NCBI GenBank assembly: GCA_003864455.1 | Contig: BGZN01000005.1 | Coordinates: forward strand, 9,280 to 73,279 | Length of the DNA stretch: 64,000 nt | From: Candidatus Termititenax aidoneus | GTDB lineage: Bacteria > Margulisbacteria > Termititenacia > Termititenacales > Termititenacaceae | Direction of reading: 5' to 3' | Shown: positions 515 to 63,417 of the stretch, piece after piece | Layout: each line of letters begins with the position of its first letter | Numbering within the stretch: position 1 is the first letter of the stretch | The notes under the pieces: generated by a model | Told to the model about the DNA's origin: nothing | Databases searched by the model: none | What the model saw: the letters and a program-made list of their open reading frames with translations, nothing else | Position numbers and translations under genes: made by a program

Positions 515-1528
515 ATGTTGCGCAAAATAAATGAAAACGAAACCGCGCGGTACAACGCCTTTGTCGCGCAGGCCGCGCAGGGACATTTCATGCAGACGAC
601 TTACTGGCGCGATTTGAAATGCGCTTTTGGCTGGCAGGATGCCGGACAGTATATTCTGGAAAAAGACGGCCAAATAATTGCCGGTTTTTCGCTTCTGCTG
701 CGCGCCAAATTTGGTCTAAAAATTCTCTATGCGCCGCGCGGTGCGCTGTGGGATATCGCAGATGAGGCGGTCACGGCAGAAACTTTGAATTTTCTGAAAG
801 ATTTGGCTAAAAAACAGCGCGCTTTTTTTATCCGTATTTCGCCAGATTATCTGGAAACGGACACAACAGCCAGGCAAATATTAACCAAGCATAATTTTCA
901 CTTTTCTAGAAAACAATTGCAGACCAAAGCCACTATGCTTGTTAATTTACAGTGTTCCGAAGATGAATTATTGGCCTCATTTCACGAAAAAACTCGTTAT
1001 AATATCCGTCTGGCCGAACGCAAAGGCGTGACGGTAGGTGAATTGCAAAATGAGGCGGAACTTCAGGATTTTTACCGCATAATGGAGCAAATGGCCGCGC
1101 GGCAGGATTATAATTTGCAATCTTACGATTATTATAAGTACATCTGGCAAAGATTGCCCATCGCTAAAATTTATCTGGCCAAATACGACCGCAAAATTAT
1201 CGGCGGCGTGGTGGTTTTTTCATTCAAGGATACGGCTTATTATATGTACGGCGGCTTTGACAGCGAGTACCGCAAGGTGATGGGCAATTATCTTATTCAC
1301 CGGGAAATAATGCGGCAGGGTCAGGCCGCTGGATTGAAATATTATGACCTGCAGGGTGTGCCGTTAAGCAAAGACGAAAATCACCCGATGCACGGTTTTT
1401 ACCGTTTCAAAAAAGGCTTCAACGGACAAGAAGTGGAGTTTATTGGCGAGTATGACTTTGCGCCGCTGGGCTGGCCGTATCAGCTCTGGCAAAATTGGCC
1501 TTTTGACCGGCGGCAATATTTACAGTAG
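515..1528 (+). CDS. FemAB-family peptidoglycan bridge aminoacyltransferase (FemX-like)
   Basis: The protein is about 338 aa from the internal ATG at 515 (MLRKINENETARYNAFV...). It shows FemAB-like features (HxxxYNIRLAERKGV, YYMYGG). The upstream part of the listed ORF is probably non-coding. Confidence 0.7.
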   Translation: MLRKINENETARYNAFVAQAAQGHFMQTTYWRDLKCAFGWQDAGQYILEKDGQIIAGFSLLLRAKFGLKILYAPRGALWDIADEAVTAETLNFLKDLAKKQRAFFIRISPDYLETDTTARQILTKHNFHFSRKQLQTKATMLVNLQCSEDELLASFHEKTRYNIRLAERKGVTVGELQNEAELQDFYRIMEQMAARQDYNLQSYDYYKYIWQRLPIAKIYLAKYDRKIIGGVVVFSFKDTAYYMYGGFDSEYRKVMGNYLIHREIMRQGQAAGLKYYDLQGVPLSKDENHPMHGFYRFKKGFNGQEVEFIGEYDFAPLGWPYQLWQNWPFDRRQYLQ

Positions 1529-1551
1529 TTAATATTCCCGGCGACGATTTT

Positions 1552-1800
1552 TTAAAAATCGATCAGCTCACGTACTTTAATGTTTAAAGTTTCACAGAGT
1601 TTCATCAATTGAAGCAAAGAAATATTAGCCGTACCTTTGATCATTCGATAGTAATAATAAATGCTGATGCCGGAAGTGTAAGCCAAACTTTCTTTAGTGG
1701 GGAAACCTTTGGCTGTTCGGAATTTCTCGATCCGCTTGCCTAGCCGTTTAAATTTAGGGTTGATAATTTCCCAATAACGTTCTTTTGGCGTTCTTTCCAT
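1552..1800 (-). CDS. XRE-family helix-turn-helix transcriptional regulator
   Basis: The 82-aa protein has a typical HTH_XRE core (ISIYYYYRMIKGTANISLLQLMKLCETLNIKV). It is divergent from the Cys-rich gene and has paired palindromic operators in the shared intergenic region. Confidence 0.7.
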   Translation of the reverse strand: MERTPKERYWEIINPKFKRLGKRIEKFRTAKGFPTKESLAYTSGISIYYYYRMIKGTANISLLQLMKLCETLNIKVRELIDF

Positions 1801-1817
1801 GATAGCCCATCCTTAAT

Positions 1818-1837
1818 CCTACTTAATTGAGTAAGTT
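1818..1837. promoter_or_regulatory. operator-like palindromic site 1 (CCTACTTAATTGAGTAAGTT)
   Basis: This is the first of two 20-bp near-identical copies. Its ACTTA-N6-TAAGT dyad overlaps the -35 element. Confidence 0.5.
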
Positions 1838-1839
1838 GC

Positions 1840-1868
1840 TTGACATCTTATAAACAGCGGCTTATAAT
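1840..1868 (+). promoter_or_regulatory. sigma70-type promoter (TTGACA-17 bp-TATAAT) for the Cys-rich gene
   Basis: A consensus -35 TTGACA lies at 1840-1845. A 17-bp spacer follows, then a consensus -10 TATAAT at 1863-1868. Confidence 0.6.
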
Positions 1869-1871
1869 TAA

Positions 1872-1891
1872 CCTACTCAATTGAGTAAGTT
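1872..1891. promoter_or_regulatory. operator-like palindromic site 2 (CCTACTCAATTGAGTAAGTT)
   Basis: This second copy has a perfect ACTCAATTGAGT palindrome. It lies just downstream of the -10, at the expected transcription start. Confidence 0.5.
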
Positions 1892-1926
1892 AATTTTAAG
1901 TAACAAATATCTAAGGGGGTATGTAT

Positions 1927-3930
1927 ATGGCGCGTTACAAATATAACCTGCCGGACGGAGAGACAGCGGTTGCCGGCGGGACACCAACAACGAGTACGGG
2001 ACTAGCTGAAACGGCTGAAAATAAAACGCAGAATTATTTATCCGGCCATGAAGCTTACGCGGCGGATTACAATCAAACAGTAGCAAATCTTAAAAAAGAA
2101 TATGAACACAGGTTAGCTCCTGAAATATCCGGCACAAACACTAGTCAGGATACCGCGAAAGCGGTGGCTGCAAATACAAAGACGAATCTGGATCTGCTGA
2201 GGGATGCGGTATCCGGACAGACCAGGATAGAAGCCAGCCAGATCACGACTTTGCGTGATGCGACAATTGGTCTGGTCAACTATAACAACAGCGCTGTTTT
2301 TCCCTGGGGTGAAAATATATCAGCCCTGTCTACCAAACTTAGAGCTAAGCATCTGGAAGAAGTGCGGCAGGTCATAGACGACGCGCTAAATAACGCGCGC
2401 TGTGTGGGCGGCTGCACATCGACTTGCGGGAGAGTCTGCGGCAATGACTGTGTGGCGGACTGCAAAGCCAGCTGCGGCGCGGCCAGCTGTACCAGCGAGT
2501 GCGGCGTGGCCTGTGCCACAACCTGCGGAGACGGGTGTAAAGAAGTTTGCGGTAAAACGTGCGCGTCATCTTGCGATGACGGATGTATAGGTTCTTGCGG
2601 GACTATATGCGCGGATGCCTGTGGTTCGGTTTGCGCTACAGGCTGCGGCATAGCGTGCGCATCTACTTGCGGAGACGGGTGTAAAGACGTTTGTGGGACT
2701 ACTTGTGCCACTGCCTGTGGAACGGCTTGCACGGATGGCTGCGGCGCAGCGTGTGCAACAACTTGTGGCGACGGCTGTAAAGATGCCTGCGGTGCGATTT
2801 GCTCATCTGCCTGTGGAACGGCTTGTACGGACGGTTGCGGCACAGCATGTGCGACAACCTGCGGTGACGGTTGTAAAAATGTTTGCGGTACTATCTGCAC
2901 GACTGCTTGTGGCGACAGCTGTACAGGTAATTGTGGCAGTGTTTGTGCTGCTGATTGCGGCGCAATCTGTACAAGTGGTTGCGGCTCTGCTTGTGCGGCT
3001 TGCGGTTCAGCTTGTCAGTTTAATACCTGTAGTAATACTTGTAATGCTACAAATTACCATTATTGTAAAGATGGTTGCGGAAAATCTTGTGGTGGTCATG
3101 CCAAAACAAATATAGGAAGTTGTTTAGGAACTTGCGGCGCTGGCTGCGGTAGCGGTTGTGCTAGTTGTACTGATACATGTAACAATACTTGCGGCGGCGG
3201 TTGTGTAGACGTTTGTAGTGTTTGTGGCACAAGCTGTGCGTCTGCTTGCGGTAGCGCTTGTGGCAGTGCTTGTGGCGCAGCTTGTATGTTTGCTTGCGGC
3301 ACAATCTGCGCGGATGGCTGCGGACAAAAATGCGCGTCCACCTGTGGTGACGGGTGTAAAGAAGTTTGCGGGGCTACCTGTGCCACTGCCTGTGGAACGG
3401 CTTGTACAGACGGCTGCGGACAAAAATGCGCGTCCACCTGCGGAGACGGGTGTAAAGATGTTTGCGGTACTACCTGTGCCATTGCTTGCGGCTCGGCTTG
3501 TACAGACGGCTGCGGACAAAAATGCGCGTCCACTTGCGGCGATGGCTGTAGAGGAGCTTGCGGCGAAGCCTGTAAGTCTGCCTGTGGAACGGCTTGTACA
3601 GACGGCTGCGGGGCGGCCTGCACCTCTGCTTGTGACGAGAACTGTACAAACGACTGCAGCGGGATTTGCGCGTCCACCTGCGGAGATGGTTGTGCCGGCA
3701 GCTGCGGCAAGGCTTGTGCTTTGGGCTGCGGGGTGAGCTGCGCGGTGGGCTGTTCGCAGACCTGCGATGCGGCGTGTAATATAAATTGTAATACAGACTG
3801 CCGGAATAATTGTTATGACGGCTGTGTCAGCAGTTGTTTTAATGGCTGTGCGGAAACAAGCCGATATGAACCCTATCCGTCTGTTGTAAAAACTCCGGGC
3901 AGTAAAGCCAATCGCGCGGCGGGGACGTAG
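1927..3930 (+). CDS. Cys-tetrad repeat protein (about 125 Cys at CxxxCGxx periodicity in 32-aa super-repeats), no signal peptide
   Basis: The ORF is 669 aa. An SD (AAGGGGG) at 1913-1919 favours the ATG at 1927 over the one at 1921. The N-terminal roughly 160 aa are non-repetitive. Then come about 500 aa with a cysteine every 4th residue (e.g. CGQKCASTCGDGCKEVCGATCATACGTACTDG repeated). Antisense ORFs over this region are repeat artefacts. Confidence 0.8.
   Translation: MARYKYNLPDGETAVAGGTPTTSTGLAETAENKTQNYLSGHEAYAADYNQTVANLKKEYEHRLAPEISGTNTSQDTAKAVAANTKTNLDLLRDAVSGQTRIEASQITTLRDATIGLVNYNNSAVFPWGENISALSTKLRAKHLEEVRQVIDDALNNARCVGGCTSTCGRVCGNDCVADCKASCGAASCTSECGVACATTCGDGCKEVCGKTCASSCDDGCIGSCGTICADACGSVCATGCGIACASTCGDGCKDVCGTTCATACGTACTDGCGAACATTCGDGCKDACGAICSSACGTACTDGCGTACATTCGDGCKNVCGTICTTACGDSCTGNCGSVCAADCGAICTSGCGSACAACGSACQFNTCSNTCNATNYHYCKDGCGKSCGGHAKTNIGSCLGTCGAGCGSGCASCTDTCNNTCGGGCVDVCSVCGTSCASACGSACGSACGAACMFACGTICADGCGQKCASTCGDGCKEVCGATCATACGTACTDGCGQKCASTCGDGCKDVCGTTCAIACGSACTDGCGQKCASTCGDGCRGACGEACKSACGTACTDGCGAACTSACDENCTNDCSGICASTCGDGCAGSCGKACALGCGVSCAVGCSQTCDAACNINCNTDCRNNCYDGCVSSCFNGCAETSRYEPYPSVVKTPGSKANRAAGT
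2400..3800. repeat. in-frame tandem DNA repeats (about 12-nt tetrad period, 96-nt super-repeat) encoding the Cys-tetrad array
   Basis: The motif ggacaaaaatgcgcgtccacctgYggWgacgggtgtaaagaWgtttgcgg recurs at about 3316, 3415 and 3511. TGY-GGN codon periodicity is visible throughout the region. Confidence 0.7.
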
Positions 3931-3932
3931 GT

Positions 3933-4220
3933 ATGAAAACTCTCGCTGTGCTGACCCGCGATGATATACGCAGTCTGGAGATTGCCATAAATAAAACAAC
4001 CTGCGCTCAACAAGCGCTGCGCGCGAACGCTATACCTGCGAACGCGCCAAAAACCGCGGCGGATAGATTTTTCCGCGAGGCGATCTTTGCGTATGCGGAC
4101 GCGCAATATTTGCAGGGGTATTTCTGGCGGGATCTGGCGCGGCGGTACGGAGTGGAGCAAAAATATATGGACAGGCTACATGTGGATTTTAATACGAACA
4201 AGTTGCTTATGAATGAATAG
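3933..4220 (+). CDS. hypothetical protein (95 aa), apparently translationally coupled to the Cys-rich gene
   Basis: The start codon lies 3 nt after the upstream stop. There is no recognisable domain. Confidence 0.4.
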   Translation: MKTLAVLTRDDIRSLEIAINKTTCAQQALRANAIPANAPKTAADRFFREAIFAYADAQYLQGYFWRDLARRYGVEQKYMDRLHVDFNTNKLLMNE

Positions 4221-4586
4221 TTGGATTATTGCGCCGGAAATATTTTGTCGGACAATGTAAAACAAAGGGAGAACATGTTGTGTCGCTTCGACGCAGCTCA
4301 GCGACCGGTTGTTGTGATGCGCGAGGGCGAATATTTTGCCGGAGTAAAAAGGGCTTTAACAAGCGGATAATACGGAATGAAAAATATAGACTAACAAATT
4401 ATGTTTACAGGAAGCAAAAGCAAAAGCGCCTAACCTGTAGAGCGGAGAAATTTAGTAAATCACAGAGTTGCGCGCTGGAGGCGAACAGAAAAAATATAAG
4501 TTGCTGTACCAGAGCTTTTGCGGTTAAGAAGTTCTGGCCAGTTGCGGGTGCAGGGCGGCTTTGGAGTCCGGCGGGCATTTTCTTTG

Positions 4587-4622
4587 GATACTTTCTTTTT
4601 TGCTCGTGAAAAAGAAAGTATC
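4587..4622. promoter_or_regulatory. 14-bp-stem hairpin (GATACTTTCTTTTT-N8-AAAAAGAAAGTATC) immediately upstream of the radical SAM RBS
   Basis: A perfect inverted repeat ends 26 nt before the ATG at 4648. It could be an attenuator or processing structure. Confidence 0.35.
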
Positions 4623-4647
4623 AATTAAGGCAGAAAAGGAATAGTTT

Positions 4648-5847
4648 ATGATACCAGCTATCAAGAATTATGAGGGATTGAGTGTTACGTTCCAGGTAAC
4701 GGAGGATTGTAATTTAAGGTGTAAGTATTGTTATGAAGTGGATAAGAAGCCCGGAGATTTGCCATTTGAATATGCCAAAAAGTTTGTAGACATAATCTTA
4801 GAGGATGAAGACCCGATCAACGCCAAAGGCACGGATAGCGAGTGGATACTCCAACAAGGATTAATAATAGATTTTATCGGCGGAGACGCATTAATGACGC
4901 CGGAATTGCTGGATAAAATACTGACGTATTATCAGTACAAGGCAATAACAATGAATCACAAATGGGCGTACCGCTGGAGAGCCTCTATTTCCAGCAATGG
5001 GACATTGTTTGAAGACCAGAAAGTAAGGGATTTTATGATGAAGTATAAAGATAATCTTTCGATAGGCGTATCGGTAGATGGTTGTCCGGAGATACACGAT
5101 AAGAACCGCATACATAAAGACGGCCGGGGGACAATGAAAGATATACAGAAATGGTGGGATTGGTATTTGGAGTGGCACGGAATAGATAGCGTGGCGACCA
5201 AAGCTACGTGTAATAAAGATATGATACCTTATTTAGCCAAATCGATAAAATTCTTGCATGAGGAGATGAGATTAAAGCATATAAACATAAACTTTATCTT
5301 TGAGGATATGCACTTAACAGAGGACGACCTAAAACAACTAGACGAGGAAATGGAGAAGTCTACAACGTACATATTGGAGCACAGAAACGATTTACATGTA
5401 AGTATGTTCGATAAAGGCTTTGGCATAGGCGAGCCGCTGAAAGACCCGGACAAGGGTTGGTGCGGCTCAGGATCAATGCCGTGCCTGAGTATCAACGGCA
5501 AGATATACCCGTGTTTCAGATTTAGCCCGAACACGATGCACAGCAGGAAGTTAGATTTTTATGTAGGGGACATTTGGAATGGACTAAACCATAAAGAACG
5601 GTTTGAGATAGTCCGAAGTCAGACTAGAAAGAAAATTTCTCCTGAAAAATGTCTGACCTGTAATGTAGAGTCCACCTGCGCGTGGTGTATAGGTGGAGCA
5701 TTCGCGGAGAAGGGGGAATTTTACCGGCAGACGAATATTTGCGAGGTGCACAAACTGCAGAGCAAGTGGAGCAGGAGATACTGGGAGGAGTACGATAAAT
5801 TAGAGGGCACTAAGTCTTTCGACGAAAACGGGAAAGTGATTTTGTGA
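4648..5847 (+). CDS. radical SAM/SPASM-domain maturase (anaerobic sulfatase maturase-like)
   Basis: An N-terminal CNLRCKYC (CX3CX2C) motif is followed by GGDALMTPE. The C-terminal region has extra Cys, including CLTCNVESTCAWC, which is an exact CX2CX5CX3C SPASM signature. Confidence 0.85.
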   Translation: MIPAIKNYEGLSVTFQVTEDCNLRCKYCYEVDKKPGDLPFEYAKKFVDIILEDEDPINAKGTDSEWILQQGLIIDFIGGDALMTPELLDKILTYYQYKAITMNHKWAYRWRASISSNGTLFEDQKVRDFMMKYKDNLSIGVSVDGCPEIHDKNRIHKDGRGTMKDIQKWWDWYLEWHGIDSVATKATCNKDMIPYLAKSIKFLHEEMRLKHININFIFEDMHLTEDDLKQLDEEMEKSTTYILEHRNDLHVSMFDKGFGIGEPLKDPDKGWCGSGSMPCLSINGKIYPCFRFSPNTMHSRKLDFYVGDIWNGLNHKERFEIVRSQTRKKISPEKCLTCNVESTCAWCIGGAFAEKGEFYRQTNICEVHKLQSKWSRRYWEEYDKLEGTKSFDENGKVIL

Positions 5848-6346
5848 TTTAGTCCGGCAAATATATTTACCCTCGCGAACACGGCATAGCACTGAAGGTT
5901 ACGTTCGCTACGGGTAAAATATTTGCCGGACTGAATTTGGTGAATATTTAGCAGAGCGAATATTTTGCCGTAAGCGCGTCTGGCTCGAACTTAACAAGCA
6001 AAGCGAAGTTAAGTGAGAGTCCACCACGCGCGGCGGTAAAGATATTCGCTCTGCGGAAGGGACGGAGTGTTTAGGTAAAGTCGCTTCGACGGTTCGACAT
6101 CTCGACTTCGCTCCCTTCGGGGCTACGCTCGATGACCGCAAGCTCACCGTCCCAAGCTCAGCGACCGGTTGTTGCGATGCGCTGGCAAAGGTATTTGCCG
6201 GACGTGAATGGCCTCCCCTTGGCAAGGGGAGGCGGCTAAAAATTTGCCACAGGCAAATTTTTGGCGGAGGGGTGTTTTGCGGAGCAAAACATTGGTTCAT
6301 GTAAGGTTATTATACGAGGAACAAAAAATAAAAAGGAGGAAAAATT

Positions 6347-6721
6347 ATGACAAAGAGCAATAACGAGGAAGCAAAAGAGACGAAGCCGGAGGTGTGCCCG
6401 ATCTGCGGGAAAGTGCATCCGCAAAGAGAGGACTTGAATATTAAAGCGACACGGGACGAGGTAGAGAGCTTGATACTCATAAACAACCGGGTAAATGTGG
6501 CGGAGCAGGCGGCGCGTCCGACGGCCTTGCAGCAGGGGGTTACGCAGGAGCAGGTGCAGGTGTTCGTGAATGCGGCGCTCAATGCTAAGGCAGAGGCCAT
6601 GAATTTACAGCGGCAATGGTGGAATGAAATATTCGCCAAGTATCCGCAATTACCGAGAGACAAAAATGTGTTTGTGGATTTTGATACTTGTGATTTCTAC
6701 TTGAACTTAACGAGCAGCTAG
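6347..6721 (+). CDS. hypothetical small protein with N-terminal CPICGK zinc-ribbon-like motif
   Basis: A strong RBS (AGGAGG) lies at 6333-6338. The 124-aa ORF sits between the two radical SAM genes. Confidence 0.5.
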   Translation: MTKSNNEEAKETKPEVCPICGKVHPQREDLNIKATRDEVESLILINNRVNVAEQAARPTALQQGVTQEQVQVFVNAALNAKAEAMNLQRQWWNEIFAKYPQLPRDKNVFVDFDTCDFYLNLTSS

Positions 6722-6890
6722 GCTGCGAAGTTAAGTGAAAGTCACAAGCCGCTGAAAGCGGCGAAGTGCTAGTGCAAATAGAGCGATAGCGAAGTTACTT
6801 GTTGCTCTCACTTCACTTCGCTAACGCTTGTGAAGTTCGAGGCGGTCGCAAGGCCGCTGGAAGCGGCGAAGTGTTAGGACAGATAGCGCA
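6722..6890. repeat. REP/MITE-like dispersed repeat copy between the two radical SAM-locus genes
   Basis: The copy reads gcgaagttaagtgaaagtcacaagccgctgaaagcggcgaagtg ... cgaagttacttgttgctctcacttcacttcgc. It has internal inverted symmetry and shares words with the tRNA-flanking repeats. Confidence 0.55.
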
Positions 6891-8123
6891 GTGATAAAAC
6901 AACCATTGTATGAAACTGTTAATAAAGAATTAGGGGATTATCCCCCTGAGTATTTTTGTGAGCGATTGAGAATTTGCAGTGTGTCGCTGCAAGTAACCGA
7001 AAAATGCACGAATCACTGCCGGCATTGCGCTAATTACGGTTCTCCGCAAAACACAGCCAGTTTAGATTTTGCTGTAATTAAAAAAGTTATCGTTGAAATG
7101 CTTGAGCAAAAATATTCTCTGCTCTTACTTTGGGGCGGTGAGCCTTTTTTGTATAAGTATTTTTATGAGACTATAAAATTTGCCTTTGCTAGCGGGATAA
7201 AAGATATTGGCGTAAATACCAATTGTTTTTGGGCTGTGTCAGAAAAAGCTGTGGAGGGATTTATAAAAAAAGTAGCATCTTGGCAGAACAATGACCAAAG
7301 GCTTACCTTGTCGATTAGTTGTGATAGATTTCATCAAGAGCAAGAAGCAAGCACGCCTGTAAAAAATATTGTAAATCTAATAGCTGTGTTGGAAAGAGAG
7401 GGGCTTGATTATGATATACAGTCAATATACACCGAGAACGATACTGTTTTTGAATCAGTCTTAACAGCTCTGCGGGAAAGAAATGTGCCTGTGGATAATG
7501 TTAAAAAACGCCGAAGAGTTCTTCCTTTGGAATACATTGGCCGCGCGGCACAATTATCTCATAAGACTGATTTTGCAGCGGAATATAACTGCGCTTTTTT
7601 AAATAAAAATCCAGAAATATTGCTTTTTGTTACGGCTGGCGGGCAAGCTGTTTTTGCTGAAAATTTTGTGGGAGATAAGCTGCTGCCTTTTGGCAATATC
7701 AAAAATCAATCGCTGGCCGATATCGAAAACGAAATGAATTCTTGCAAGATCTTAAAATTGATCCGCCTCTGGCCGAAAAAATTCTTCTTTTACCCGTTTC
7801 GTAAATATTTAGATTTACAGGATTTTTGCTGCGACTTATCCGATGGTAAAATTAAAAATGCGTTTTATGTACGGGATAAAGTGACGGAAATATTACAAAT
7901 TAAAGAAAAACAATTCGACATGTCAGACAAACTGCAAGCTGCCAGACGAATATACAGCGGTGTGAATGAGCTGCCGGAACAAGAGTGTCTGGATATTATT
8001 GAGCGTTACGGTGATCTTTCCGATGTTTTTTATCTGCGGGAATTAAACGGAAAAATTACCACTGAGCAAAAAATTCAAACAATTTTAGCCACAACATTTT
8101 CTATGAGCGGAAATCAAATATAA
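6891..8123 (+). CDS. radical SAM protein (no SPASM domain), GTG start
   Basis: A CTNHCRHC (CX3CX2C) motif sits near the N-terminus, followed by LLLWGGEPFLY. The C-terminal half is not recognisable. Confidence 0.7.
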   Translation: MIKQPLYETVNKELGDYPPEYFCERLRICSVSLQVTEKCTNHCRHCANYGSPQNTASLDFAVIKKVIVEMLEQKYSLLLLWGGEPFLYKYFYETIKFAFASGIKDIGVNTNCFWAVSEKAVEGFIKKVASWQNNDQRLTLSISCDRFHQEQEASTPVKNIVNLIAVLEREGLDYDIQSIYTENDTVFESVLTALRERNVPVDNVKKRRRVLPLEYIGRAAQLSHKTDFAAEYNCAFLNKNPEILLFVTAGGQAVFAENFVGDKLLPFGNIKNQSLADIENEMNSCKILKLIRLWPKKFFFYPFRKYLDLQDFCCDLSDGKIKNAFYVRDKVTEILQIKEKQFDMSDKLQAARRIYSGVNELPEQECLDIIERYGDLSDVFYLRELNGKITTEQKIQTILATTFSMSGNQI

Positions 8124-8306
8124 ACACAGACTGCTTATAATCCGCCTGTCCAGTGGTGTCCGGCACGGTTTTCTAGGTGCGGCCGGCGATCTCCAGTTTT
8201 TTGCGGAAGCGTGTTACCAGAGCCATCGGCAGGTGAATAAAATGGTCATTGCGGCGTGATTTTCTCGCTGGGATAACGCCGGACAAAATGTTAAGATTTC
8301 CGCTGT

Positions 8307-10103
8307 ATGCAAATAGACCTGATCCGCAATTTTTCGATTATTGCCCATATCGACCACGGTAAATCCACGCTGGCCGACCGTCTGCTGGAACTGACCGGCG
8401 CGGTGTCCGCGCGGGACATGCGCGCCCAACTGCTGGACTCTATGGACATCGAACGCGAACGCGGCATCACGATCAAGCTCAACAACGCGCGTTTGAGTTA
8501 TCAGGCTTTGGACGGCAAAGTTTATGAATTAAATCTGATCGACACGCCCGGCCATGTGGATTTTAGTTATGAAGTGTCGCGTTCGCTGGCGGCCTGCGAG
8601 GGCGCGCTGCTGGTCGTGGACGCTTCGCAAGGCATCGAGGCGCAGACGCTGGCCAATGTCGGTCTGGCGCGCGAACTGGGCTTGCAAATAATTCCGGTGA
8701 TCAACAAGATCGACTTGCCGGCCGCCGATGTAAATATGGCGCAGGAAGAATTGCTCGATGTCCTGGGTATAGACCCCGATGAATGTATTTTGGCTTCGGC
8801 CAAAGAAGGCCTCGGCATACAGGATATTTTGGAAGCGATAGTGCGGCGCATACCCTGTCCGCAAAACAATAACAAGCCCCTGCAGGCGCTGATTTTTGAT
8901 TCTTATTTTGACGAGTACCGCGGCGTGGTCGCGCAGATCCGGATCAAAGAAGGCCGGATGCGCAAAGGCATGAAAATGCAGACTATGCAGACCGGCCAAG
9001 AACATGAAGTGCTGGAACTCGGCGTCAAAACTCCGGCGCTGAAACCGGTGGACGAGCTGTCGACCGGCGAGGTGGGTTATGTCATTGCCAATATCAAGGC
9101 CATTGAAGACGCGACTGTCGGCGATACTATTACCGACGCTTCCGCTCCGGCCGCCGAGCCATTGCCCGGCTACAAACCGGCCAAGTCCATGGTTTTTTGC
9201 GGACTTTTTCCGGTGGACGGCGAGCAATTTGAGGCTTTGCGCGAAGCCCTGGGCAAGATGAAACTCAATGACGCGGCGCTGCAATACGAGCCGGAAACTT
9301 CGACCGCGCTGGGTTTTGGTTTTCGCTGCGGTTTTTTGGGTTTGCTGCATATGGAAATAGTGCAGGAGAGACTGGAGCGCGAGTATGATCTCAATCTACT
9401 GGCCACCACGCCTGCGGTGGAAGTGGAAGTTGTCAAAACCAACCGCGAAATAGAATTGATCGATTCTCCGGCCAAACTGCCGCCGGTCTCCAGCATCGAG
9501 GCTATCCGCGAGCCTTTGGTCAAAGCGGTAATCATCACGCCCAACACTTACACTGGCGCGATCATGGAGCTGTGCCAGAAACGCCGCGGAATATTTCGCG
9601 ATATGGAATATCTGGACAAGACGCGCGTGCGCCTAAATTACGAACTGCCGCTTATCGAAATAGTCACCGATTTTTTCAATAAATTAAAATCTGTCTCGCA
9701 GGGTTACGCTTCTTTTGACTATGAGTTTATCGAATTTCGCGAGTCGGACATGATCAAGCTGGATATTTTGCTCAACGGCGAGCCGGTGGACGCGCTGGCG
9801 GTCATCATTCACCGCTCCACGGCGGAATCCCGCGGCCGCAAACTCTGTGAAAAACTCAAGGAGCTGATCCCCCGGCACATGTTCGAGATACCTATACAAG
9901 CGGCGATTGGCGGCAAAGTTATCGCCCGTGAAACTATCCGTGCCAACCGCAAGGACGTTACGGCCAAATGCTACGGCGGTGACGTGACGCGCAAACGCAA
10001 ACTTCTCGAAAAACAAAAAGAGGGCAAAAAGCGCCTGAAATCCGTCGGTTCTGTGGACATACCGCAGGAAGCGTTTTTGGCGATGCTGAAAATTGAAGAA
10101 TGA
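8307..10103 (+). CDS. lepA: translation elongation factor 4 (LepA)
   Basis: The N-terminus reads [22 protein letters not shown], with a GTPase G-domain. The 598-aa length is typical. Confidence 0.95.
10064..10096. repeat. 33-bp direct repeat, copy 1 (lepA 3' end), flanking the MntA/HepT cassette
   Basis: The sequence tttttggcgatgctgaaaattgaagaatgattt recurs at 10796-10828 with one mismatch. Confidence 0.8.
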
Positions 10104-10137
10104 TTTTTTAACGCAAATAAAATGATATAATAAGCGC

Positions 10138-10437
10138 ATGAGTAATTTTTTGTATAGCGTGGACGATATCAAATCCCGTGTTGCTGGTGTGGCCGATAAA
10201 TACGGTATTGGACGGGCTTTTTTGTTCGGTTCTTACGCCAGAGGCGAGGCCACTCCGCAGAGCGACATTGATATTTGCATTGAAAAAGGCCAACTCCGCA
10301 CCTTGCTGGAATTATCAGGGTTTTATCAGGATTTGGAAAAAACTTTACAGCATAAGGTCGATGTTGTGACTATGGACGGCCTGGATAATAATTTTAAGGC
10401 CGAAATAAAAAAAGAATTTGTGCTTATTTATGAATAA
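10138..10437 (+). CDS. mntA: nucleotidyltransferase-domain antitoxin (MntA-like)
   Basis: It carries the minimal nucleotidyltransferase signature LFGSYARGEATPQSDIDI. It overlaps the HepT start by 8 nt. Confidence 0.8.
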   Translation: MSNFLYSVDDIKSRVAGVADKYGIGRAFLFGSYARGEATPQSDIDICIEKGQLRTLLELSGFYQDLEKTLQHKVDVVTMDGLDNNFKAEIKKEFVLIYE

Positions 10438-10780
10438 TTCAAAAGACGCTAGTTTGCTCAAACATATTCTCAAGCATTGCGAGGCGATCATTGCCGCGCA
10501 AAAAAGATTTGGCCAGGATTTTGAAGTGTTTGCCAAAGATACAGATTATTTTAATTCTGTTTGTATGAGTTTATTGCAGATTGGTGAATTGGCCAATCAT
10601 TTATCAGCGGAGTTTCGGACTAAACACAATGTGCTGTCATGGCCGGAGATTATTGGACTGCGTAATGTTGTCGTGCATGGATATGGACAGTTGGACGCCG
10701 CTATTGTTTGGGCGACGCTTAATGAGGATGTGCCAAAACTTCTTCAGTATTGTGCTAAATTGCTGTTCTCAAGCGAATAA
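10430..10780 (+). CDS. hepT: HepT-like HEPN toxin (DUF86)
   Basis: An R-x4-HxY HEPN motif (LRNVVVHGYG) is present. The start is likely the ATG at 10430, overlapping the mntA stop. Confidence 0.8.
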   Translation: MNNSKDASLLKHILKHCEAIIAAQKRFGQDFEVFAKDTDYFNSVCMSLLQIGELANHLSAEFRTKHNVLSWPEIIGLRNVVVHGYGQLDAAIVWATLNEDVPKLLQYCAKLLFSSE

Positions 10781-10795
10781 ACAAAGCCAGAAACA

Positions 10796-10828
10796 TTTTT
10801 GGCGATGCTGAAAATTGAGGAATGATTT
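10796..10828. repeat. 33-bp direct repeat, copy 2 (duplicate of the lepA 3' end)
   Basis: It matches 10064-10096 except for one substitution (gaa to gag). Confidence 0.8.
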
Positions 10829-10922
10829 CAAATAATTTTGACGAAAAAATAATTAAAAAATTACTATAATATCCGCCCGGTTTAAGTTATAATCCTTACA
10901 CAAATTAAGTGGAGGAGATTTT

Positions 10923-11684
10923 ATGCAATTTCTCATTTTGATATTGATCGTTGCGGCGGTGGTCGTTTTGGCTTCGGTCAAGCAGATCAATCAATATGAG
11001 CGCGGTCTGCTTTTTTCTTTTGGCCGGTTTACGAAAATTTTGGAACCGGGCTGGCGGCTGGCGCTGCCGGTAATCCAGTCTTTTGAGAAAGTGGACATTC
11101 GCACCAAGGCTGTCGATGTGCCGCCGCAGGACGCCATCACACGCGACAATGTTTCGATCAAGATCAACGCCGTGATTTATTACAAAGTTTTTGACGCGGG
11201 CAAGGCGATCATCGAAGTCGAGAATTTTTATTACGCCGTGAGCCAACTGGCGCAGACTACCATGCGCAACACTGTCGGCTCGGTAACGCTGGACGAACTG
11301 CTGACCGACCGCGAAAAAGTTTCCAGAGAAATCTGTTCGATCATCGACAAGCTGACTGACCCGTGGGGCATCAAAGTTGAGAATGTCGAGTTGAAAGATA
11401 TTGCTTTGTCCGAAGAAATGAAACGCGTCATCGCCAAAGTCGCCGAAGCTGAACGCGAAAAACGCGCGGTCATCACCAAAGCGGCCGGCGAAGTCGAGGC
11501 TGCGGAAAATCTGGCCAAAGCCGCTTCGCTCATGGGACAGACACCGGGCGCACTGCATTTACGCACGCTCTCCACGCTCAATGATTTGAGTTCCGACCAG
11601 TCCAACACAGTAATTTTTGCCGTGCCGGTCGAAGCTTTGCGCGCGCTGGAAGGCCTGGCTAAACTGGCGGAGAAAAAAGCCTAA
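10923..11684 (+). CDS. SPFH/band-7 (stomatin/HflC-like) membrane protein
   Basis: An N-terminal TM helix is followed by an SPFH core (YERGLLFSFGRF...ITRDNVSIKINAVIYYKV). The RBS is GGAGGAG. Confidence 0.85.
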   Translation: MQFLILILIVAAVVVLASVKQINQYERGLLFSFGRFTKILEPGWRLALPVIQSFEKVDIRTKAVDVPPQDAITRDNVSIKINAVIYYKVFDAGKAIIEVENFYYAVSQLAQTTMRNTVGSVTLDELLTDREKVSREICSIIDKLTDPWGIKVENVELKDIALSEEMKRVIAKVAEAEREKRAVITKAAGEVEAAENLAKAASLMGQTPGALHLRTLSTLNDLSSDQSNTVIFAVPVEALRALEGLAKLAEKKA

Positions 11685-11715: not shown

Positions 11716-12813
11716 ATGTTCGGGCTCTATATTCACATTCCGTACTGCCTGCAAAAATGCCGCTACTGCGATTTCGTGAGTTTTCCGGTAAATTCTGTCC
11801 CTGACGCTTACATCGACACTTTGTGTTTTGAAATTAATGGGTATTTTTCTGCTGATAGTGGGTATAAATATAGTGATAATATAATATCGACAATATATGT
11901 CGGAGGGGGGACGCCGAGTTTGCTGTCCGCCGGGCAGCTAGCCCGGATAATCGCAAGCGTGAAAAATATTTTTGCGGTGGCGGACGGCGCGGAATTTACG
12001 CTGGAAGCCAATCCGGAAACTTACGCGAAAGAAAAATTCGCGGCCTATCGAGCGCTGGGCGTAAACCGGATTTCTTGGGGCGTACAGTCTTTTCAGCCGG
12101 AATATTTGCGGTATTTAGGACGGGCGCATTCGCGGGAAAAAGCGGCCGAGGCTTTGCGGGGCGCGCGGGAAATTTTCGACAATGTCAGCGTGGATTTGTT
12201 GAACAATTTGCCCGGGCAGACTCTGGAGCAAAGCGCGGCGGATTTGCGGACGGCGGTGGATTTTCAGCCGCGGCATATTTCCTGCTACGAGCTGACTGTG
12301 GAGCGCGGCACGCCGCTGGCTGCAGAAGGCGGCACGCCGCTGGCCGCGGAAAAAACCGTCCGCAGCGAATTGGAGGCCGAAATGTATTTGCAGACAAAAA
12401 AAATTTTGGCGGAAAACGGCTACGCGCAATATGAGATTTCCAATTACGCGCAGGCCGGTTATGAGTCCAAACACAATTTAGCCTATTGGTCAGATGAGCC
12501 GTATCTCGGCGTGGGGTTGGCCGCGCATAGTTATGACAAAGCCGGTGGTCGGCGCTGGGCGAACACGCGCAATCTCCAGGATTATCTCCGCAGGATTTTT
12601 CACCGCGAGACAGAGACGGAAAATGCTTTTAACAAAATCCTAATGGGCTTGCGCAAAAACAGCGGCATTCCCGAATCCTATCTCAACGCGCGCCAAAAAG
12701 CCGCTGCCCAAAAATTAGTTTCCGAGGAATTGCTGGCCTGGCAAAATAATAATTTGTGCGCGACCAACCGCGGACGCTTGGTTTTAAATCAAATACTGCT
12801 GGAGTTAATGTGA
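11716..12813 (+). CDS. hemW: radical SAM heme chaperone HemW (HemN-like, oxygen-independent coproporphyrinogen oxidase family)
   Basis: The protein begins MFGLYIHIPYCLQKCRYCDF at the internal ATG at 11716. It is HemN-like throughout. Confidence 0.85.
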   Translation: MFGLYIHIPYCLQKCRYCDFVSFPVNSVPDAYIDTLCFEINGYFSADSGYKYSDNIISTIYVGGGTPSLLSAGQLARIIASVKNIFAVADGAEFTLEANPETYAKEKFAAYRALGVNRISWGVQSFQPEYLRYLGRAHSREKAAEALRGAREIFDNVSVDLLNNLPGQTLEQSAADLRTAVDFQPRHISCYELTVERGTPLAAEGGTPLAAEKTVRSELEAEMYLQTKKILAENGYAQYEISNYAQAGYESKHNLAYWSDEPYLGVGLAAHSYDKAGGRRWANTRNLQDYLRRIFHRETETENAFNKILMGLRKNSGIPESYLNARQKAAAQKLVSEELLAWQNNNLCATNRGRLVLNQILLELM

Positions 12814-15800
12814 GAAAACTTTGGACAATTTTGTTGATCTTGCTGCTGCTGCCAGCGGCAGCCAAAGACCCGATGAAGCGCGGCAAGTCCGCTTTTCAGC
12901 CCGGCCGCGCCTATCCGCAGGTGGATATTTCCGGCTATGAAGAATTGGAATTTAATACTTTAGAGCAGTCCGGCGATCCGCAAAAATACCAAAACACAGC
13001 TGAATATTTAGGTCTGCCGGCTTCGGTTAAAGTTTACGACGGTTTGCGCCACCGCCGCTTGATCGACCTTGAAGGCCAGATCAACGAAAAACTTTACGTG
13101 CGCTACAAGATTACCCAGGACCCCGACCTGCCGCAAGAAACGGACATTTATGTCGAGTATGATAAATTCTCAGTGTATTTTGGCAAGTATGACGCCGCTT
13201 TGGTCAACGGCGATATGTTTTCGCTGGGCAAAGGCATTGACGGACTGCACGCCGATTATCTGGACAAGGATTTTGAACTGGAGGCGATTTACGGCGAGGA
13301 GCGTTCGCATGAGCGCGAGTTTTCTTTTCAGGGTTCGGGCAAACGCGAGTACAGCCTCGGCCAGACAAATATTGTGGAAGGCACGCTTAAGATCCGTCTG
13401 AACGGCAATGAGCTTTCGGAAAACGACTACCGCGTGGATTATTTTGACGGCATAATCGTTTTTGACAAAATCCTTTCCGTGCTGGACAAGATCGAAGGCA
13501 CATACGAATATCTGGACCCAATCGAAGATTTTTTGCCGATCTCTTCCAAAATTCGTTTGAGCGGCGTCCAGCACCGCTACAAAGCTTATCGCGGCTCTGA
13601 ACCGATAATTATTACGGCGGACGCGCTGTATCAATACGAGCCGGCGCTCAATGAGCCGGTGGCTGCGCCGCCGGACGCTTTGCGCGCGGCGACGAGTTTT
13701 GCTTATCAAGACGGCGAATTAAATATCGCGGTGCAGCGCGGCGCGGAGCAGGCGGTTTATTTACACTATCTTAACGAGCGTATTCCTTTGCAGCCAGCAG
13801 AAGATACCGGCGCCTGGACTTTGACTATGCCGCTCACGCAGGGCGGACAAGAAGCGTCCCTGGATTATGAATTTGCGGATTATACTTTGCGGCAGGAATA
13901 CCGGCTTTATTTGGAAAAACCGGATATTTGCGATTACCGCGTGTCCGCCGGTTATCAAGTCCTTTTGCCGGAAGGCGTGGTTAATTTTACGCGCGACAAG
14001 TTTACCCAAAACGAAACACTGCATTTTATTTTCCGCGCGTCTGACAGCCTGCCCGAAAAAATCCTGGTCAATTTTCAAAATGACGCGCAGGAATTGCAGC
14101 TCTCCAACGGAGAGTTTGTTTTCGACCGCCGCTTACTTGAGGAAACGGCCGGCGTGAAAAATTTTTATTTAATATTCAATCACGGCGCTGCAGACGAAAA
14201 GGCGCGCAAAGTGCCTTTTGCGGTGGACTACGCGCCGGTCGAGACCGGAGTTTTAGAAAAAATCCAACTGGCGGATTTTCCGGTGATCTCTTTTACGGAA
14301 AAAGTTTATTTTGAAGGCAGGCTGCTGACTGCCAATCAGGATTATAAATTAAACTACGCGACCGGCCTGCTGACTTTTTTGCGGCCGCTGCCGGCGGATA
14401 CTTATGCCTTGAAAGTTGAGTATGTGTACAATCAGACCCGCGCGGCGCAGGAAATCATCAAAGGCCGCGACTCGCAGGGGCCGTATGCTTTGGCGCACAG
14501 TTTGCTGGTGCCGGGCAGCGCGGTGATCATGGTCAATAATCTCAATATGATCGAAGGCGTGGACTACACTTTGGATCCGCGCACCGGCGCGCTCAGTTTT
14601 CCGCGGCGCATCAATTCGGTCGACGCTATACAGGTCAATTACCGTTATTTTGATTCACTGCTGCCGGCAGAGCTGCAGAAAAAAGAGCAGTTCACAATCA
14701 GCAGTTATTATGTGCAGGAGCAGGCCAAGTCCGCGGAAGGCGAGGGGTTGGAGTCGCATACGCTTTCCGGCGGAGACCTCAGCGTAACCAGCAGCTATGA
14801 CGCAGTCAGCCAAAACTGGCTTACGCTGATCACTATCTCAACTAAATATTTGCCGATTACCAAATTCGGCGAAGTGCAGGTTGACGGCAGTAAAGTCGAT
14901 ATTCTGGCCAAGTCTGAATATAACGGGCGGCTGGTCATTTCCGGCAATTACACGGACGCCAATCGTATCAAGGTTTCTTTTGACCAAGGCCAGGCTGCGC
15001 AGGCGCCGCAAATTTATTTTCGGAATAACGCTATGTTAACAGAAATAGTTCTTGACGAGATAACTTCTTTTGCCAGGCCGATCCTTTACGGCTCGGTTGT
15101 TTTAGAAGTGCGGCGGAAAAATGATCCTTTTTATATTCCCCTGGTGCAGAACCGCGATTATATTATGGGACGGGGAAGTGATTTGCTGTCCGGATACGCC
15201 GGCAATGGCGATGCGCTTGTTTCGGATAATGCGGAGGTTTGGCAGCGCGGCATTATTACTTTTATTACGGGCAATGCTTATACTCCTTACTATGCGTACA
15301 ATGGTTTCGGTCCGGACGATGATTTCCGCCTGACTTACAAAATTTCCAACGCCGAAAGCACCGACCCGGGCGATGTTCTGCATCAGACTTACGGCACAAA
15401 ATTCGCTTACTCGCCGACGGACTGGCTGCGCGCCGATGTGGAATACAATGAAAGCCGCAAGCGTTATCAGCGTGCTTCCGCGCAGGAATCGGTTACAAGC
15501 AACGGCTCCGGTTACGCCGGACAGGAAATCAATATTTTGAATTTATTAAAAAATAGAAGTTCGGCCTACAACAGCTTGACTAATTTGGAAATCGTCGAAG
15601 ACAGCGAAAAAGTTTATATCAATGACCGGCTGCAGACCAAAAACGATGGGTACACGCTGGCTTACAACGGCGGAGTTTTGCGTTTTCATTCCGGTCTGGC
15701 GTTGTCGCCAGCCGATATAGTACGGGTTGATTTTAGTTATTACAGCAGCGGTGTCGGCGAGCAGGAGCAGTTTGACGAAAAAGCCAAGGCTGCCAAAGTC

Positions 15801-63290: not shown

Positions 63291-63364
<74 letters not shown>

Positions 63365-63417
63365 CTCGAGCTTAACAAGCGTGCGCAGCACGCGCCGTTA
63401 AGCGAGAGCCACAAGCG

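Follow-up and report, generated by a model that had tools for sequence, protein, structure and literature searches.

An old MntA/HepT toxin-antitoxin insertion and duplicated lepA tails at a recurrent insertion hotspot in the Candidatus Termititenax clade

Defence-island hotspots located between core genes are known from surveys of E. coli and P. aeruginosa. Prophage e14 and phage 21 reportedly integrate into icd and replace its 3′ end with one supplied by the element. CIMEs and accretion are said to occur at the 3′ end of fda (ICESt1/ICESt3) and in the ssrA islands of Dehalococcoides. In HepT toxins, the motif RX4HXY comprises the RNase site and the AMP-accepting tyrosine. Class I HEPN/MNT pairs are characterized by a GSX10DXD antitoxin motif combined with RX4HXY in the toxin (Yao et al. 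2020, PMC7641770). "Insertion with long target duplication" has so far been documented for restriction-modification (R-M) systems, with a tentative link to their DNA-cutting activity (PMC2853133). In these cases (Nobusato et al. 2000; Furuta, Abe & Kobayashi 2010), the duplication exceeds 30 bp, its length is variable and no mobility genes are found (PMC2853133). The species concerned are mostly naturally competent, the inserts often have a deviant GC content, and some duplications overlap the 3′ end of a gene, as does a 46-bp repeat at the 3′ end of the upstream gene in H. influenzae (PMC2853133).

The window considered here is a stretch of 64,000 nt of Candidatus Termititenax aidoneus (contig BGZN01000005.1). 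It carries a MntA/HepT toxin-antitoxin (TA) cassette between lepA and a Band_7/SPFH gene (Table 1). The extreme 3′ end of lepA is a recurrent insertion hotspot in the Termititenax clade, and the cassette is an old insertion at this hotspot, not a new kind of mobile element.

Table 1. Features of the lepA locus. Positions are those of the window; TA, toxin-antitoxin.
Feature	Position	Strand	Basis or remark
lepA (elongation factor 4), intact, 598 aa	8307..10103	+	Pfam GTP_EFTU, EFG_C, LepA_C
Weak hairpin and T-run in the lepA 3′ coding region	10049..10079	+	8-pair stem
Active lepA tail, copy 1: final lepA codons, TGA and 3 nt	10068..10106	+	Ungapped repeat alignment
Inserted MntA/HepT cassette, 683 nt, low GC	10107..10789	+	Absent from the empty site of L082
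Putative extended -10 box TGATATAAT	10123..10131	+	Read from the sequence
mntA, antitoxin, minimal nucleotidyltransferase, 99 aa	10138..10437	+	Pfam PF01909
hepT, toxin, HEPN RNase family, 116 aa	10430..10780	+	Pfam PF01934
Displaced lepA tail, copy 2 (33-mer: 10796-10828)	10790..10828	+	Former lepA 3′ end
Ancestral lepA-to-Band_7 spacer with Band_7 promoter-like boxes and Shine-Dalgarno sequence	10829..10922	+	Aligns with L082 and L081
Band_7/SPFH gene, conserved right neighbour of the hotspot	10923..11684	+	Pfam PF01145, 2e-38

The LepA protein of the window is identical to GBR73026.1 (Ca. Termititenax aidoneus). MntA (GBR73027.1) matches PF01909 (NTP_transf_2) at 2.2e-16 with 60.5 bits (cut-off 21), PADLOC PDC-S09 at 1e-23 and PDB 1WOT at 6e-8. 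It has the GSX10DXD motif (G30 S31 YARGEATPQS D42 I D44), aligned with that of 1WOT. HepT (GBR73028.1) matches PF01934 (DUF86/HepT-like) at 3.1e-20 with 72.5 bits (cut-off 23.5); no PDB relative is detectable by sequence. Its RX4HXY motif is present (R78-NVVV-H83-G-Y85), and R78, H83 and Y85 are invariant across 14 homologues. The two genes are adjacent and co-oriented, the antitoxin gene being first. As initially annotated, they overlap by 8 nt (ATGAATAA) and are the only genes between the repeats: the 33-mer copies are 689 nt apart (10107-10795) and enclose one NTP_transf_2 ORF and one HepT-like ORF. The cassette and the displaced tail together form a 722-nt unit. The putative -10 box ends 6 nt before the mntA ATG and there is no Shine-Dalgarno sequence (leaderless-type start). 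The same promoter layout (GGTATAAT, 6 nt, ATG) precedes mntA and the HindIII-like gene in the related locus L090; the mntA box was not called by a two-hexamer promoter scan. Judged from these features, the pair is an intact class I HEPN/MNT system (type VII TA) in an apparently self-promoted operon. HepT would be an RNase restrained by oligo-AMPylation of Tyr85, catalysed by MntA. Like the neighbouring R-M cassette, MntA/HepT may be an addictive or defensive module, a type of cargo that would make such cassettes persist in a small symbiont genome.

The repeat that flanks the pair was first described as the last 30 nt of lepA plus the stop codon. Copy 1, TTTTTGGCGATGCTGAAAATTGAAGAATGATTT, does exist, but its placement at 10064-10096 was 10 nt off: it lies at 10074-10106 and comprises 27 nt from the end of the coding sequence, the TGA stop codon and 3 nt beyond it. 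Copy 2, with one mismatch (A to G), lies where it had been placed, 15 nt downstream of the hepT stop codon. The repeat extends ungapped to 39 nt with 3 mismatches. At the sole mismatch of the 33-mer, copy 2 has G, as in L082, a relative whose site is empty. The junction between copy 1 and the cassette, TGA followed directly by TTTTTTAACGCA, is the same in L090.

It is next to impossible that this repeat is due to chance or to an assembly artefact, or that it is a dispersed terminator or REP-like element instead of an insertion footprint. A hairpin and a T-run do lie within the tail, and other short dispersed repeats do exist in the window. However, the chance expectation for a 33-mer copy is 0.00 (100 shuffles), and no further copy with 3 mismatches or fewer is found in the whole 64 kb beyond the two at the lepA locus. 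The repeat is lepA coding DNA, found once in the empty sites of relatives, not the separate terminator element that the first-pass annotation had named as an alternative. An artefact is rejected because an independent metagenome assembly (L090) has an identical architecture: this cassette again, joined to lepA at an unchanged left junction and with tails on both sides. The hairpin segment folds with z = -1.5 in the window and z = -3.1 in tail 3 of L090, a displaced copy with a much better terminator-like hairpin (9-pair stem, then GCGTTTTTGG). The other tail folds give z = -0.5 to -1.5; thus one of five stands out.

Empty, filled, tandem and decayed sites are found in relatives. In L082, a close relative (LepA 95% identical in aa, 88% in nt), the site between lepA and Band_7 is empty and the 33-mer is present once, at 3030-3062; this is the single-copy empty site that had been anticipated in a related genome. 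Deletion in silico of positions 10107-10828 of the window restores the L082 empty site base for base and in register. The L086 site is empty too, with one tail. In L090, lepA is followed by a HindIII-like R-M pair, then by MntA/HepT and then by Band_7, and there are three lepA tails; here again the TA pair is followed by a downstream tail. L081 carries an R-M system and a HEPN/GmrSD pair between two 56-nt tails. L084 carries two tandem modules of different cargo, with the lepA tail repeated. L083, with a decayed TA, is a deletion derivative. Band_7 is the right neighbour in L081, L082, L086 and L090 as well; the spacer that precedes it in the window, which has a promoter-like match at 10838-10867 (promoter scan), is 81-82% identical in nt to those of L082 and L081. 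The other cassettes of the hotspot are a HindIII-like R-M system, a HEPN + GmrSD/NsnA-like pair and a HTH + repeat-protein module. Each cassette is trailed by another lepA tail, and the arrays reach three tails. The site is thus not specific to the TA pair, since R-M, HEPN/GmrSD and other cassettes also enter it and also duplicate the lepA tail. Nor is the duplication of a fixed 33-bp, transposon-like type: the L090 displaced tail reaches ~57-66 nt (duplications of 48-65 nt), and its tail 3 includes 30 nt that copy 2 of the window does not have. A degenerate tail-pattern scan of metagenome contigs gave 3 matches, of which only L087, a contig too short to be informative, is relevant. About five independent insertion events are considered, all from draft or MAG assemblies with short contigs. 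The proposal of an insertion, site-specific or recombination-mediated, that preserves the lepA frame is borne out by the empty site and the L090 tails.

The TA cassette of the window is 86.5% identical in nt to that of L090 and 88.4% to that of L083. Core genes give similar values: 88.2% and 87.2% for lepA (L090 and L083, respectively), 87.4% for Band_7 and 86.4% for hemW. The R-M cassettes are likewise about as diverged as core genes. Because the TA cassette has diverged between lineages as much as its core neighbours, the insertion is ancient and vertically inherited, and a recent mobile hop is rejected. The TA insertion is older than the divergence of the lineages represented by the window, L090 and L083, and the lepA tree implies a single gain and a single loss. 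The cassette GC (0.36-0.42, versus 0.53-0.55 in the flanks) and the closest HepT homologues outside the clade (64-73% aa, including named termite-gut Treponema/Spirochaetia proteins) fit a foreign origin. The nearest homologue of the TA pair outside the clade lies within a type I R-M operon, and the same pair flanked by other duplications was not found elsewhere.

These identities would also suit an ancestral lepA-(R-M)-TA-Band_7 array, already with its tails, from which cassettes were only lost by tail-tail deletion, the window being a residue without continuing gain. L083 is such a deletion derivative, and a precise empty site with a single tail is what tail-by-tail deletion produces. This history is nevertheless very unlikely: it leaves the first origin of the tails unexplained and the tails follow the lepA end of each genome. 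Gains did occur, as shown by an additional HEPN/GmrSD pair in L081 and by the unrelated modules of L084. It is a history rather than a mechanism, and is compatible with the explanation favoured below.

Active and displaced tails show 20 synonymous and 2 non-synonymous codon differences. Random change would give 77-82% non-synonymous differences (P about 1e-9, and still 1.6e-3 if p is set to 0.4). Tails therefore differ almost solely synonymously, either because incoming DNA brought the working lepA end or because tails were homogenized, or both. Tails within a genome differ at 0/42 or 1/30 positions, orthologous tails between genomes at 3-4/30. The repeat of L019 is identical over its first 38 nt, and its 11 differences are all confined to the last 37 nt; this pattern would be expected if the upstream part were duplicated resident DNA and the end donor DNA. 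Tails 1 and 2 of L090 share 11 identical nt, followed by 9 differences (9/37). The left ends of the cassettes abut the lepA stop codon and the right junctions range from -36 to -75, which fits a left joint made by homology and a right joint at an arbitrary position.

The best reading, although one that could equally well be wrong, is a recombinase-free, homology-anchored insertion at lepA "with long target duplication". The incoming DNA would carry the cassette directly behind a lepA 3′ end. This end would recombine with the resident lepA in its last well-conserved block (codons ..DIPQE..), and the far end would be joined some dozens of bases upstream, either through short homology or illegitimately. 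Equivalently, a circularized cassette-plus-tail could enter by one Campbell-type crossover. Because of the position of the far joint, the resident tail would be duplicated and not replaced. In the window, the insertion left copy 1 as the working lepA end and moved the previous end downstream as copy 2. Later recombination or gene conversion between tails would keep them alike, could delete cassettes precisely and restore the empty site, and could pass cassettes between strains with lepA as an anchor.

Observations in favour of this recombinase-free route are the empty/filled/tandem series, the in-silico excision, the lack of a recombinase, the synonymous tails and the R-M precedent. Other points count against it. 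Homology-facilitated illegitimate recombination, as seen in transformation studies, usually deletes recipient DNA and does not duplicate it. The route requires donors in which each cassette already lies directly behind lepA, and none was identified. The reuse of one site by unrelated cargo is also expected of a site-specific recombinase, as is a Gln-Glu codon boundary shared by three phyla. Part of the synonymous-only signal could also be produced by tails that evolve in concert. Finally, with only about five events on short contigs, a recombinase gene may lie elsewhere in these genomes.

The duplication could also be a true long target-site duplication: staggered breaks 30-75 nt apart at the lepA end would be filled in after ligation of linear foreign DNA, both tails being resident. 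Near-identical tails within a genome (window; tails 2 and 3 of L090), duplication lengths that vary as in the R-M cases (PMC2853133) and the absence of mobility genes agree with such breaks. Yet on its downstream side the duplication ends at the lepA stop codon in every case, and the synonymous differences between active and displaced tails are clustered (L019 11/37, L090 9/37); staggered breaks leave both unexplained. Donor-type polymorphisms are already seen in the active tails of L019 and L090, and a TA RNase supplies no DNA-breaking activity. This origin is considered very unlikely.

The point where identity gives way to divergence, or where the tail starts, falls at the CAG|GAR codons (Gln-Glu) in 4 of 5 events. 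These cases (window, L090 R-M cassette, L019 and L075) come from three phyla. Such a common boundary would suit site-specific integration, in which the tails would be attL and attR of integrase-less, CIME-like satellites whose attP has a lepA-type end, the recombinase acting in trans or having since been lost. The repeats match one attB in the empty site, the cassette is very tightly bounded at either end, one site is shared by at least 3-4 unrelated cassettes with tandem accretion, and the incoming cassette supplies a synonymous replacement end (tail 1 versus tail 2 of L090; L019). The accretion of integrase-less elements is, moreover, reportedly documented at the fda 3′ end and ssrA. Nevertheless, the common boundary is also explicable by lepA conservation stopping after ..DIPQEAF. 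The repeats have variable left ends (-36 to -75), an inverted-arm core is absent from the tail, and just one fold in five stands out. L019 would need an element-derived upstream half identical to the host at 38/38 positions with an end that differs at 11/37; crossover models fail there.

No recombinase is found in the seven occupied loci. Integrases and transposases are absent from the 26 window ORFs scanned (~37 kb around the site) and from the cargo of L081, L083, L084 and L090; RuvB and RecG are encoded within the window. Scans of IMG/VR for a phage-borne lepA tail (attP) gave either nothing or chance matches in unrelated ORFs, and nothing relevant on lepA as an integration site was found in the literature. 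Site-specific integration is thus regarded as possible but rather unlikely. Two other candidates were rejected: a DNA transposon or IS (no terminal inverted repeats, no transposase, a variable duplication of 33-66 nt) and integron/attC (no palindromic structure, no intI, cassettes with their own promoters).

The counts do not support a general excess of tail duplications at lepA in bacteria: among the loci in the matches listed, 2/76 lepA ends and 5/287 other gene ends have one. The control set is made up of 80 LepA loci among the matches listed, all ≤65% identical to the window LepA. Upstream of lepA lies a variable region of 6.7 kb, and no FemAB-tail duplication flanks it; the phenomenon is therefore specific to the lepA 3′ end. 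A broader and more speculative proposal, considered quite unlikely, is that recombinase-less mini-cassettes in distant phyla may share the ..DIPQE.. block of lepA, its last conserved one, as a place to dock. Every cassette would arrive with a synonymous lepA end of its own, and stacking into arrays with lepA tails as their limits would build an integron-like addiction/defence platform, through either an as yet unrecognized trans-acting recombinase or a general lepA-anchored transfer route. The cargo would include TA, R-M, HEPN/GmrSD and an Avd-like 23S-IVS protein. If the general route were true, genes beside highly conserved genes would be unusually mobile.

The locus provides a rare and fully readable natural series (empty, single, tandem, decayed) at one site in an uncultured termite-gut symbiont. 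Insertion with long target duplication now extends to an RNase-type TA pair, and therefore a mechanism of the host or of DNA uptake, not one encoded by the cargo, is indicated. Working and displaced ends differ only synonymously, which is direct evidence that the terminus of an essential gene can be overwritten by incoming DNA as it delivers its cargo. In practice, the end of lepA is a candidate for a neutral landing site, and its tails offer a marker by which metagenomes can be searched for such cassettes.

Compared with the described HepT/MntA type VII systems (PMC7641770), the pair shows no sequence-level difference: PF01909 is followed by PF01934 in overlapping neighbours, and both motifs are present. 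As in defence-island hotspots, variable defence or addiction cargo, often without mobility genes, lies between the same core genes (lepA, Band_7). Here, in contrast, a duplicated part of the flanking gene borders each lepA cassette individually and leaves a readable insertion footprint. Integron arrays share compact one- or two-gene cassettes in one orientation at a fixed site, with a repeat after each; they differ by intI, absent here, and by imperfect palindromic attC sites, whereas the repeats here are direct copies of a coding 3′ end and the lepA cassettes have their own promoters. With CIMEs and accretion arrays, the locus shares integrase-less segments, att-like repeats that stem from a conserved gene's 3′ end, and tandem stacking. 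A cognate integrase-bearing element is known there, whereas none was found for lepA (IMG/VR, literature).

As with e14 and phage 21, the gene is kept intact because the incoming DNA supplies another 3′ end that is nearly synonymous, the former end persists downstream as a displaced pseudo-fragment, and the coding sequence diverges after a short identical core (tail 1 versus tail 2 of L090). Those elements are large and have their own integrase; the lepA inserts (0.6-3.8 kb) have no recombinase and their repeat boundaries are variable. With the R-M class, the insertion shares a duplication of more than 30 bp of a unique target (33-39 nt in the window) around a small selfish unit. The length of the duplication is variable, the repeat is present once in the empty site of a relative, and the insert is shorter than 20 kb (722 nt), with no mobility genes in or beside it. 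The HindIII-like R-M cassette at lepA (L081, L090) fits the definition of this class literally. The cargo of the window is a TA pair with a predicted RNase toxin, in place of the R and M genes on which the definition is based, so a DNA break made by restriction cannot drive the insertion. Two further differences are the reuse of one target by several cassettes, up to a three-tail array, and the donor-type synonymous differences in the active tail, absent from the published description of the category. The window insertion behaves like a member of the long-duplication class, yet falls outside its R-M-based definition.

The 33-mer TTTTTGGCGATGCTGAAAATTGAAGAATGATTT occurs twice in the window with a single mismatch. 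The second copy (the displaced lepA tail, 3' of hepT) lies at 10796-10828, as the first-pass annotation had placed it. The first (the working tail) is at 10074-10106 and not, as annotated, at 10064-10096 (a 10-nt slip); from the extent of the lepA ORF, it takes in the final 27 nt of coding sequence, the TGA stop and 3 nt beyond. Extended without gaps, the match is 39 nt long and has 3 mismatches (10068-10106 vs 10790-10828). No third copy at <=3 mismatches was found in the 64-kb window (shuffles: 0.00 expected). As also claimed, ORF calling and Pfam find only the nucleotidyltransferase and HepT-like ORFs, overlapping by 8 nt, between the copies. The GC content of this toxin-antitoxin (TA) cassette is 0.36-0.42, versus 0.53-0.55 in lepA and the downstream Band_7 gene.

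Features of the window and gene order at the lepA loci compared. Percentages after handles are LepA aa identities to the window.
Locus	Feature or gene order	Coordinates	Remarks
Window	Repeat-rich ORF	1921-3930	96-nt units
Window	Radical-SAM genes	4648-5847, 6891-8123	
Window	lepA ORF	8307-10103	
Window	mntA (nucleotidyltransferase, 99 aa)	10138-10437	PF01909, 2e-16
Window	hepT (HepT-like, 116 aa)	10430-10780	PF01934, 3e-20
Window	1787-aa ORF	12756-18119	
Window	Repeat-rich ORF	34921-36972	270-nt units
Window	Repeat-rich ORF	38412-40439	198-nt units
Window	Giant ORF, 5019 aa	47931-62990 (-)	Internal ~590-nt tandem repeats
L082 (95%)	lepA, then Band_7 directly		One tail; spacer aligns with window 10829-10922
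L086 (T. persephonae)	lepA, then Band_7 directly		One tail
L081 (95%)	lepA, HEPN_RiboL-PSP, GmrSD_N (PADLOC NsnA, 1e-62), HindIII-like REase, N6/N4 MTase, Band_7	5742-5797, 9512-9567 (tails)	Two 56-nt tails
L090	lepA, HindIII-like REase, MTase, MntA, HepT, Band_7	2115, 4047, 4807 (tail ends)	Three tails
L083 (94%)	lepA, mntA (5'-truncated), hepT (first 15 codons), unrelated DNA		One tail seen; contig stops before Band_7
L084 (90%)	lepA, two tandem ~2-kb modules (HTH gene + repeat-rich protein)		lepA-end copy precedes second module
L085, L091	lepA, then hemW directly		No repeated tail
L019	Pyrinomonadaceae MAG JBGAKP010000003.1: single 173-aa 23S-rRNA-IVS/Avd-like four-helix-bundle gene	5803-6413	PF05635, 4e-22
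L075	Bradyrhizobium jicamae: ~2-kb insert 3' of lepA with SBP_bac_3/ligand-gated-channel gene	5797-7801	
L092	Spirochaetia bacterium BOAV01000034.1: MntA/HepT flanked by hsdM and hsdS in a type I R-M operon	625-8369	

Relatives were taken from a LepA search (95-76% aa identity) and their contigs compared at the lepA 3' flank. An empty site with a single 33-mer copy is found in L082, and in-silico deletion of window 10107-10828 gives the L082 arrangement in register. Wherever the TA pair occurs, so does the downstream copy. Together, the empty site and the accompanying copy support insertion; the site, however, is not one for TA pairs only but a hotspot shared by several cargo types. The L084 modules (3686-7187) are mutually diverged; each carries a 128-aa HTH gene, convergent with lepA and overlapping its stop, and encodes a protein of 311-337 aa that contains 222-nt repeats. 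The lepA-end copy preceding the second module is ~25 nt long and comes from the very end of the gene. L087 also has this convergent HTH gene.

The DNA 5' of lepA is variable too. A FemAB gene adjoins lepA in L083 and L090; in the window, ~6.7 kb (1529-8259) separates the two and holds a gene for a repeat protein of 669 aa, small ORFs and the two radical-SAM genes, possibly a peptide-modification cluster. No FemAB-tail duplication was found at this region. A ParE-toxin pair lies directly 5' of lepA in L084 (1328-1806); TA modules thus gather on both lepA flanks. Elsewhere in the window, tRNA-Ile(GAT) and tRNA-Ala(TGC), the pair typical of rRNA spacers (region 63291-63999; no rRNA detected in the window), sit within 56-90-nt direct repeats (GCGAAGTGACAAGGGCCAGAAAAC...) at 63417, 63598 and 63944. 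Related GCGAAGTG-containing repeats are found at 6748 and 6853 (region 6748-6889).

Judged from sequence divergence, the TA insertion is old. The lepA tree is (window, ((L090, L083), (L082, L081))), with L084, L086, L085 and L091 outside. Nucleotide identity between the window and L090 is 86.5% for the TA cassette, 88.2% for lepA, 87.4% for Band_7 and 86.4% for hemW; with L083 it is 88.4% (cassette) and 87.2% (lepA). The left junction TGA|TTTTTTAACGCA is common to the window and L090. A cassette as diverged as core genes and a common junction place its entry before the window, L090 and L083 lineages split. The L081/L082 branch lost it later, and tails recombining with each other would yield exactly the single-tail empty site seen there. 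The L083 locus is a deletion derivative. The L081 and L090 R-M cassettes have their right junction in common and are 81.8% identical, within the weaker core-gene range (hemW 83%). The third (3'-most) tail of L090 keeps 30 nt missing from the displaced tail of the window, which puts the length first duplicated at about 57-66 nt and not 33. The 33-bp target duplication of the first-pass annotation stands as a duplication, but one since eroded and not made by a transposon-like mechanism.

All sequence features defining class I HEPN/MNT (HepT/MntA, type VII; Yao et al. 2020, PMC7641770) are found in the window pair: GS-X10-DXD in the antitoxin (G30 S31 ... D42 I D44) and RX4HXY in the toxin (R78, H83, Y85; each invariant in 14 homologues). 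By analogy, HepT would be an mRNA-cleaving RNase, blocked when MntA adds AMP to Tyr85. LepA, MntA and HepT match GBR73026-28 from Candidatus Termititenax aidoneus (Margulisbacteria) without a difference. A TGATATAAT box (TATAAT) ends 6 nt 5' of the mntA ATG, with no Shine-Dalgarno (window 10126-10140). The same layout is found in L090 for mntA (about 4075-4092) and the neighbouring HindIII-like REase gene (about 2170-2189); the chromosomal Band_7 gene, by contrast, has a GGAGGAG Shine-Dalgarno. This suggests leaderless mRNAs for these two cassette genes.

Loss of a TA or type II R-M pair harms the cell, which makes such pairs addictive; the remaining cargo (HEPN/GmrSD-NsnA-like) consists of defence genes. 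Named Treponema/Spirochaetia proteins are among the nearest HepT homologues outside the clade (64-73% aa). Among pairs with retrievable genomic context, the closest outside Margulisbacteria is in L092, within a dense defence island with Shedu (SduA_C), Abi_alpha and DUF3990/DUF3791 genes. Termititenax is found attached to termite-gut spirochaetes, which makes acquisition of the cassette within the termite gut plausible.

Among 76 unrelated lepA loci scanned as a control, two further tail duplications were found. In L019, the gene starts 10 nt past the stop of lepA, and 4 nt separate its end from a 75-nt tail copy. This copy matches the active tail exactly over its first 38 nt; all 11 differences, almost all synonymous, are in the last 37 nt. 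This is a clean and apparently recent second example from another phylum. In L075, the insert is followed by a decayed tail (-36 to +8; 80% identity, changes mostly non-synonymous). Since a downstream repeat is found at 7/363 gene ends in the control loci, enrichment at lepA (2/76) is not demonstrable.

Differences between working and displaced tails amount to nine synonymous codons, one Glu/Asp change and a stop-to-stop change in L019, six synonymous and one Arg/Lys between the first two L090 tails, four synonymous in L081 and one in the window (none non-synonymous in either). Pooled, 20 are synonymous and 2 non-synonymous, versus 77-82% non-synonymous expected at random (P about 1e-9; still 1.6e-3 at 40%). 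Displaced tails are thus not simply decaying: either a working lepA end of another lineage came in with the inserted DNA, or the active tail repeatedly overwrites the others, or both. Tails differ less within genomes (window 1/30; L090 tails 2 and 3, 0/42) than between orthologous tails of different genomes (3-4/30), which points to gene conversion or repeated recombination. In L090, the displaced tail 3' of hepT (4749-4790; cf. window 10049-10079) is altered so that it forms a hairpin of 9 pairs, with GCGTTTTTGG after it (z = -3.1), and may now be the TA operon terminator; the hairpin-forming part is lost from the window's displaced tail. Other tail folds are unremarkable, and no inverted-arm core was found in the lepA tail.

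Searches of 26 window ORFs (about 37 kb around the site), of the cargo of seven occupied loci and of phage contigs scanned for a lepA-tail attP turned up no integrase, transposase or integron integrase. All cassette left ends abut the lepA stop codon; the displaced-tail start varies from -36 to about -75. A fixed left end, arbitrary right joints, identical upstream and donor-type downstream halves (L019, L090 R-M cassette) and the lack of recombinases favour a homology-anchored event as the best explanation, a class of mechanism given about an even chance. DNA bearing a lepA end and a cassette would recombine with resident lepA at the last well-conserved block (..DIPQE..), and its far end would join slightly upstream, duplicating the resident end; a single crossover of a circularised cassette-plus-tail would do likewise. 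RuvB and RecG are encoded in the window. In three phyla, one and the same pair of codons (CAG|GAR) marks the mosaic boundary. This boundary and the reuse of the site would also be accounted for by a site-specific recombinase acting in trans (CIME-like, as at fda or ssrA), which is rather unlikely and fits less well the L019 mosaic and the absence of recombinases at all loci. Duplication by a staggered break fails on the donor-type polymorphisms and is improbable.

The structure seen at lepA has a published parallel in R-M systems, named 'insertion with long target duplication' by Kobayashi's group (PMC2853133): duplications are >30 bp and of variable length, sometimes over a gene 3' end, with no mobility genes and mostly in competent species. 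Of interest here are the tandem array of three tails and the synonymous replacement of the end of an essential gene. The window belongs to a known category of long-target-duplication, att-like islets at the 3' end of a conserved gene; it and its relatives resemble the published cases in structure, and the window differs from them, which is also of interest, in that its cargo is a TA pair and not an R-M system.
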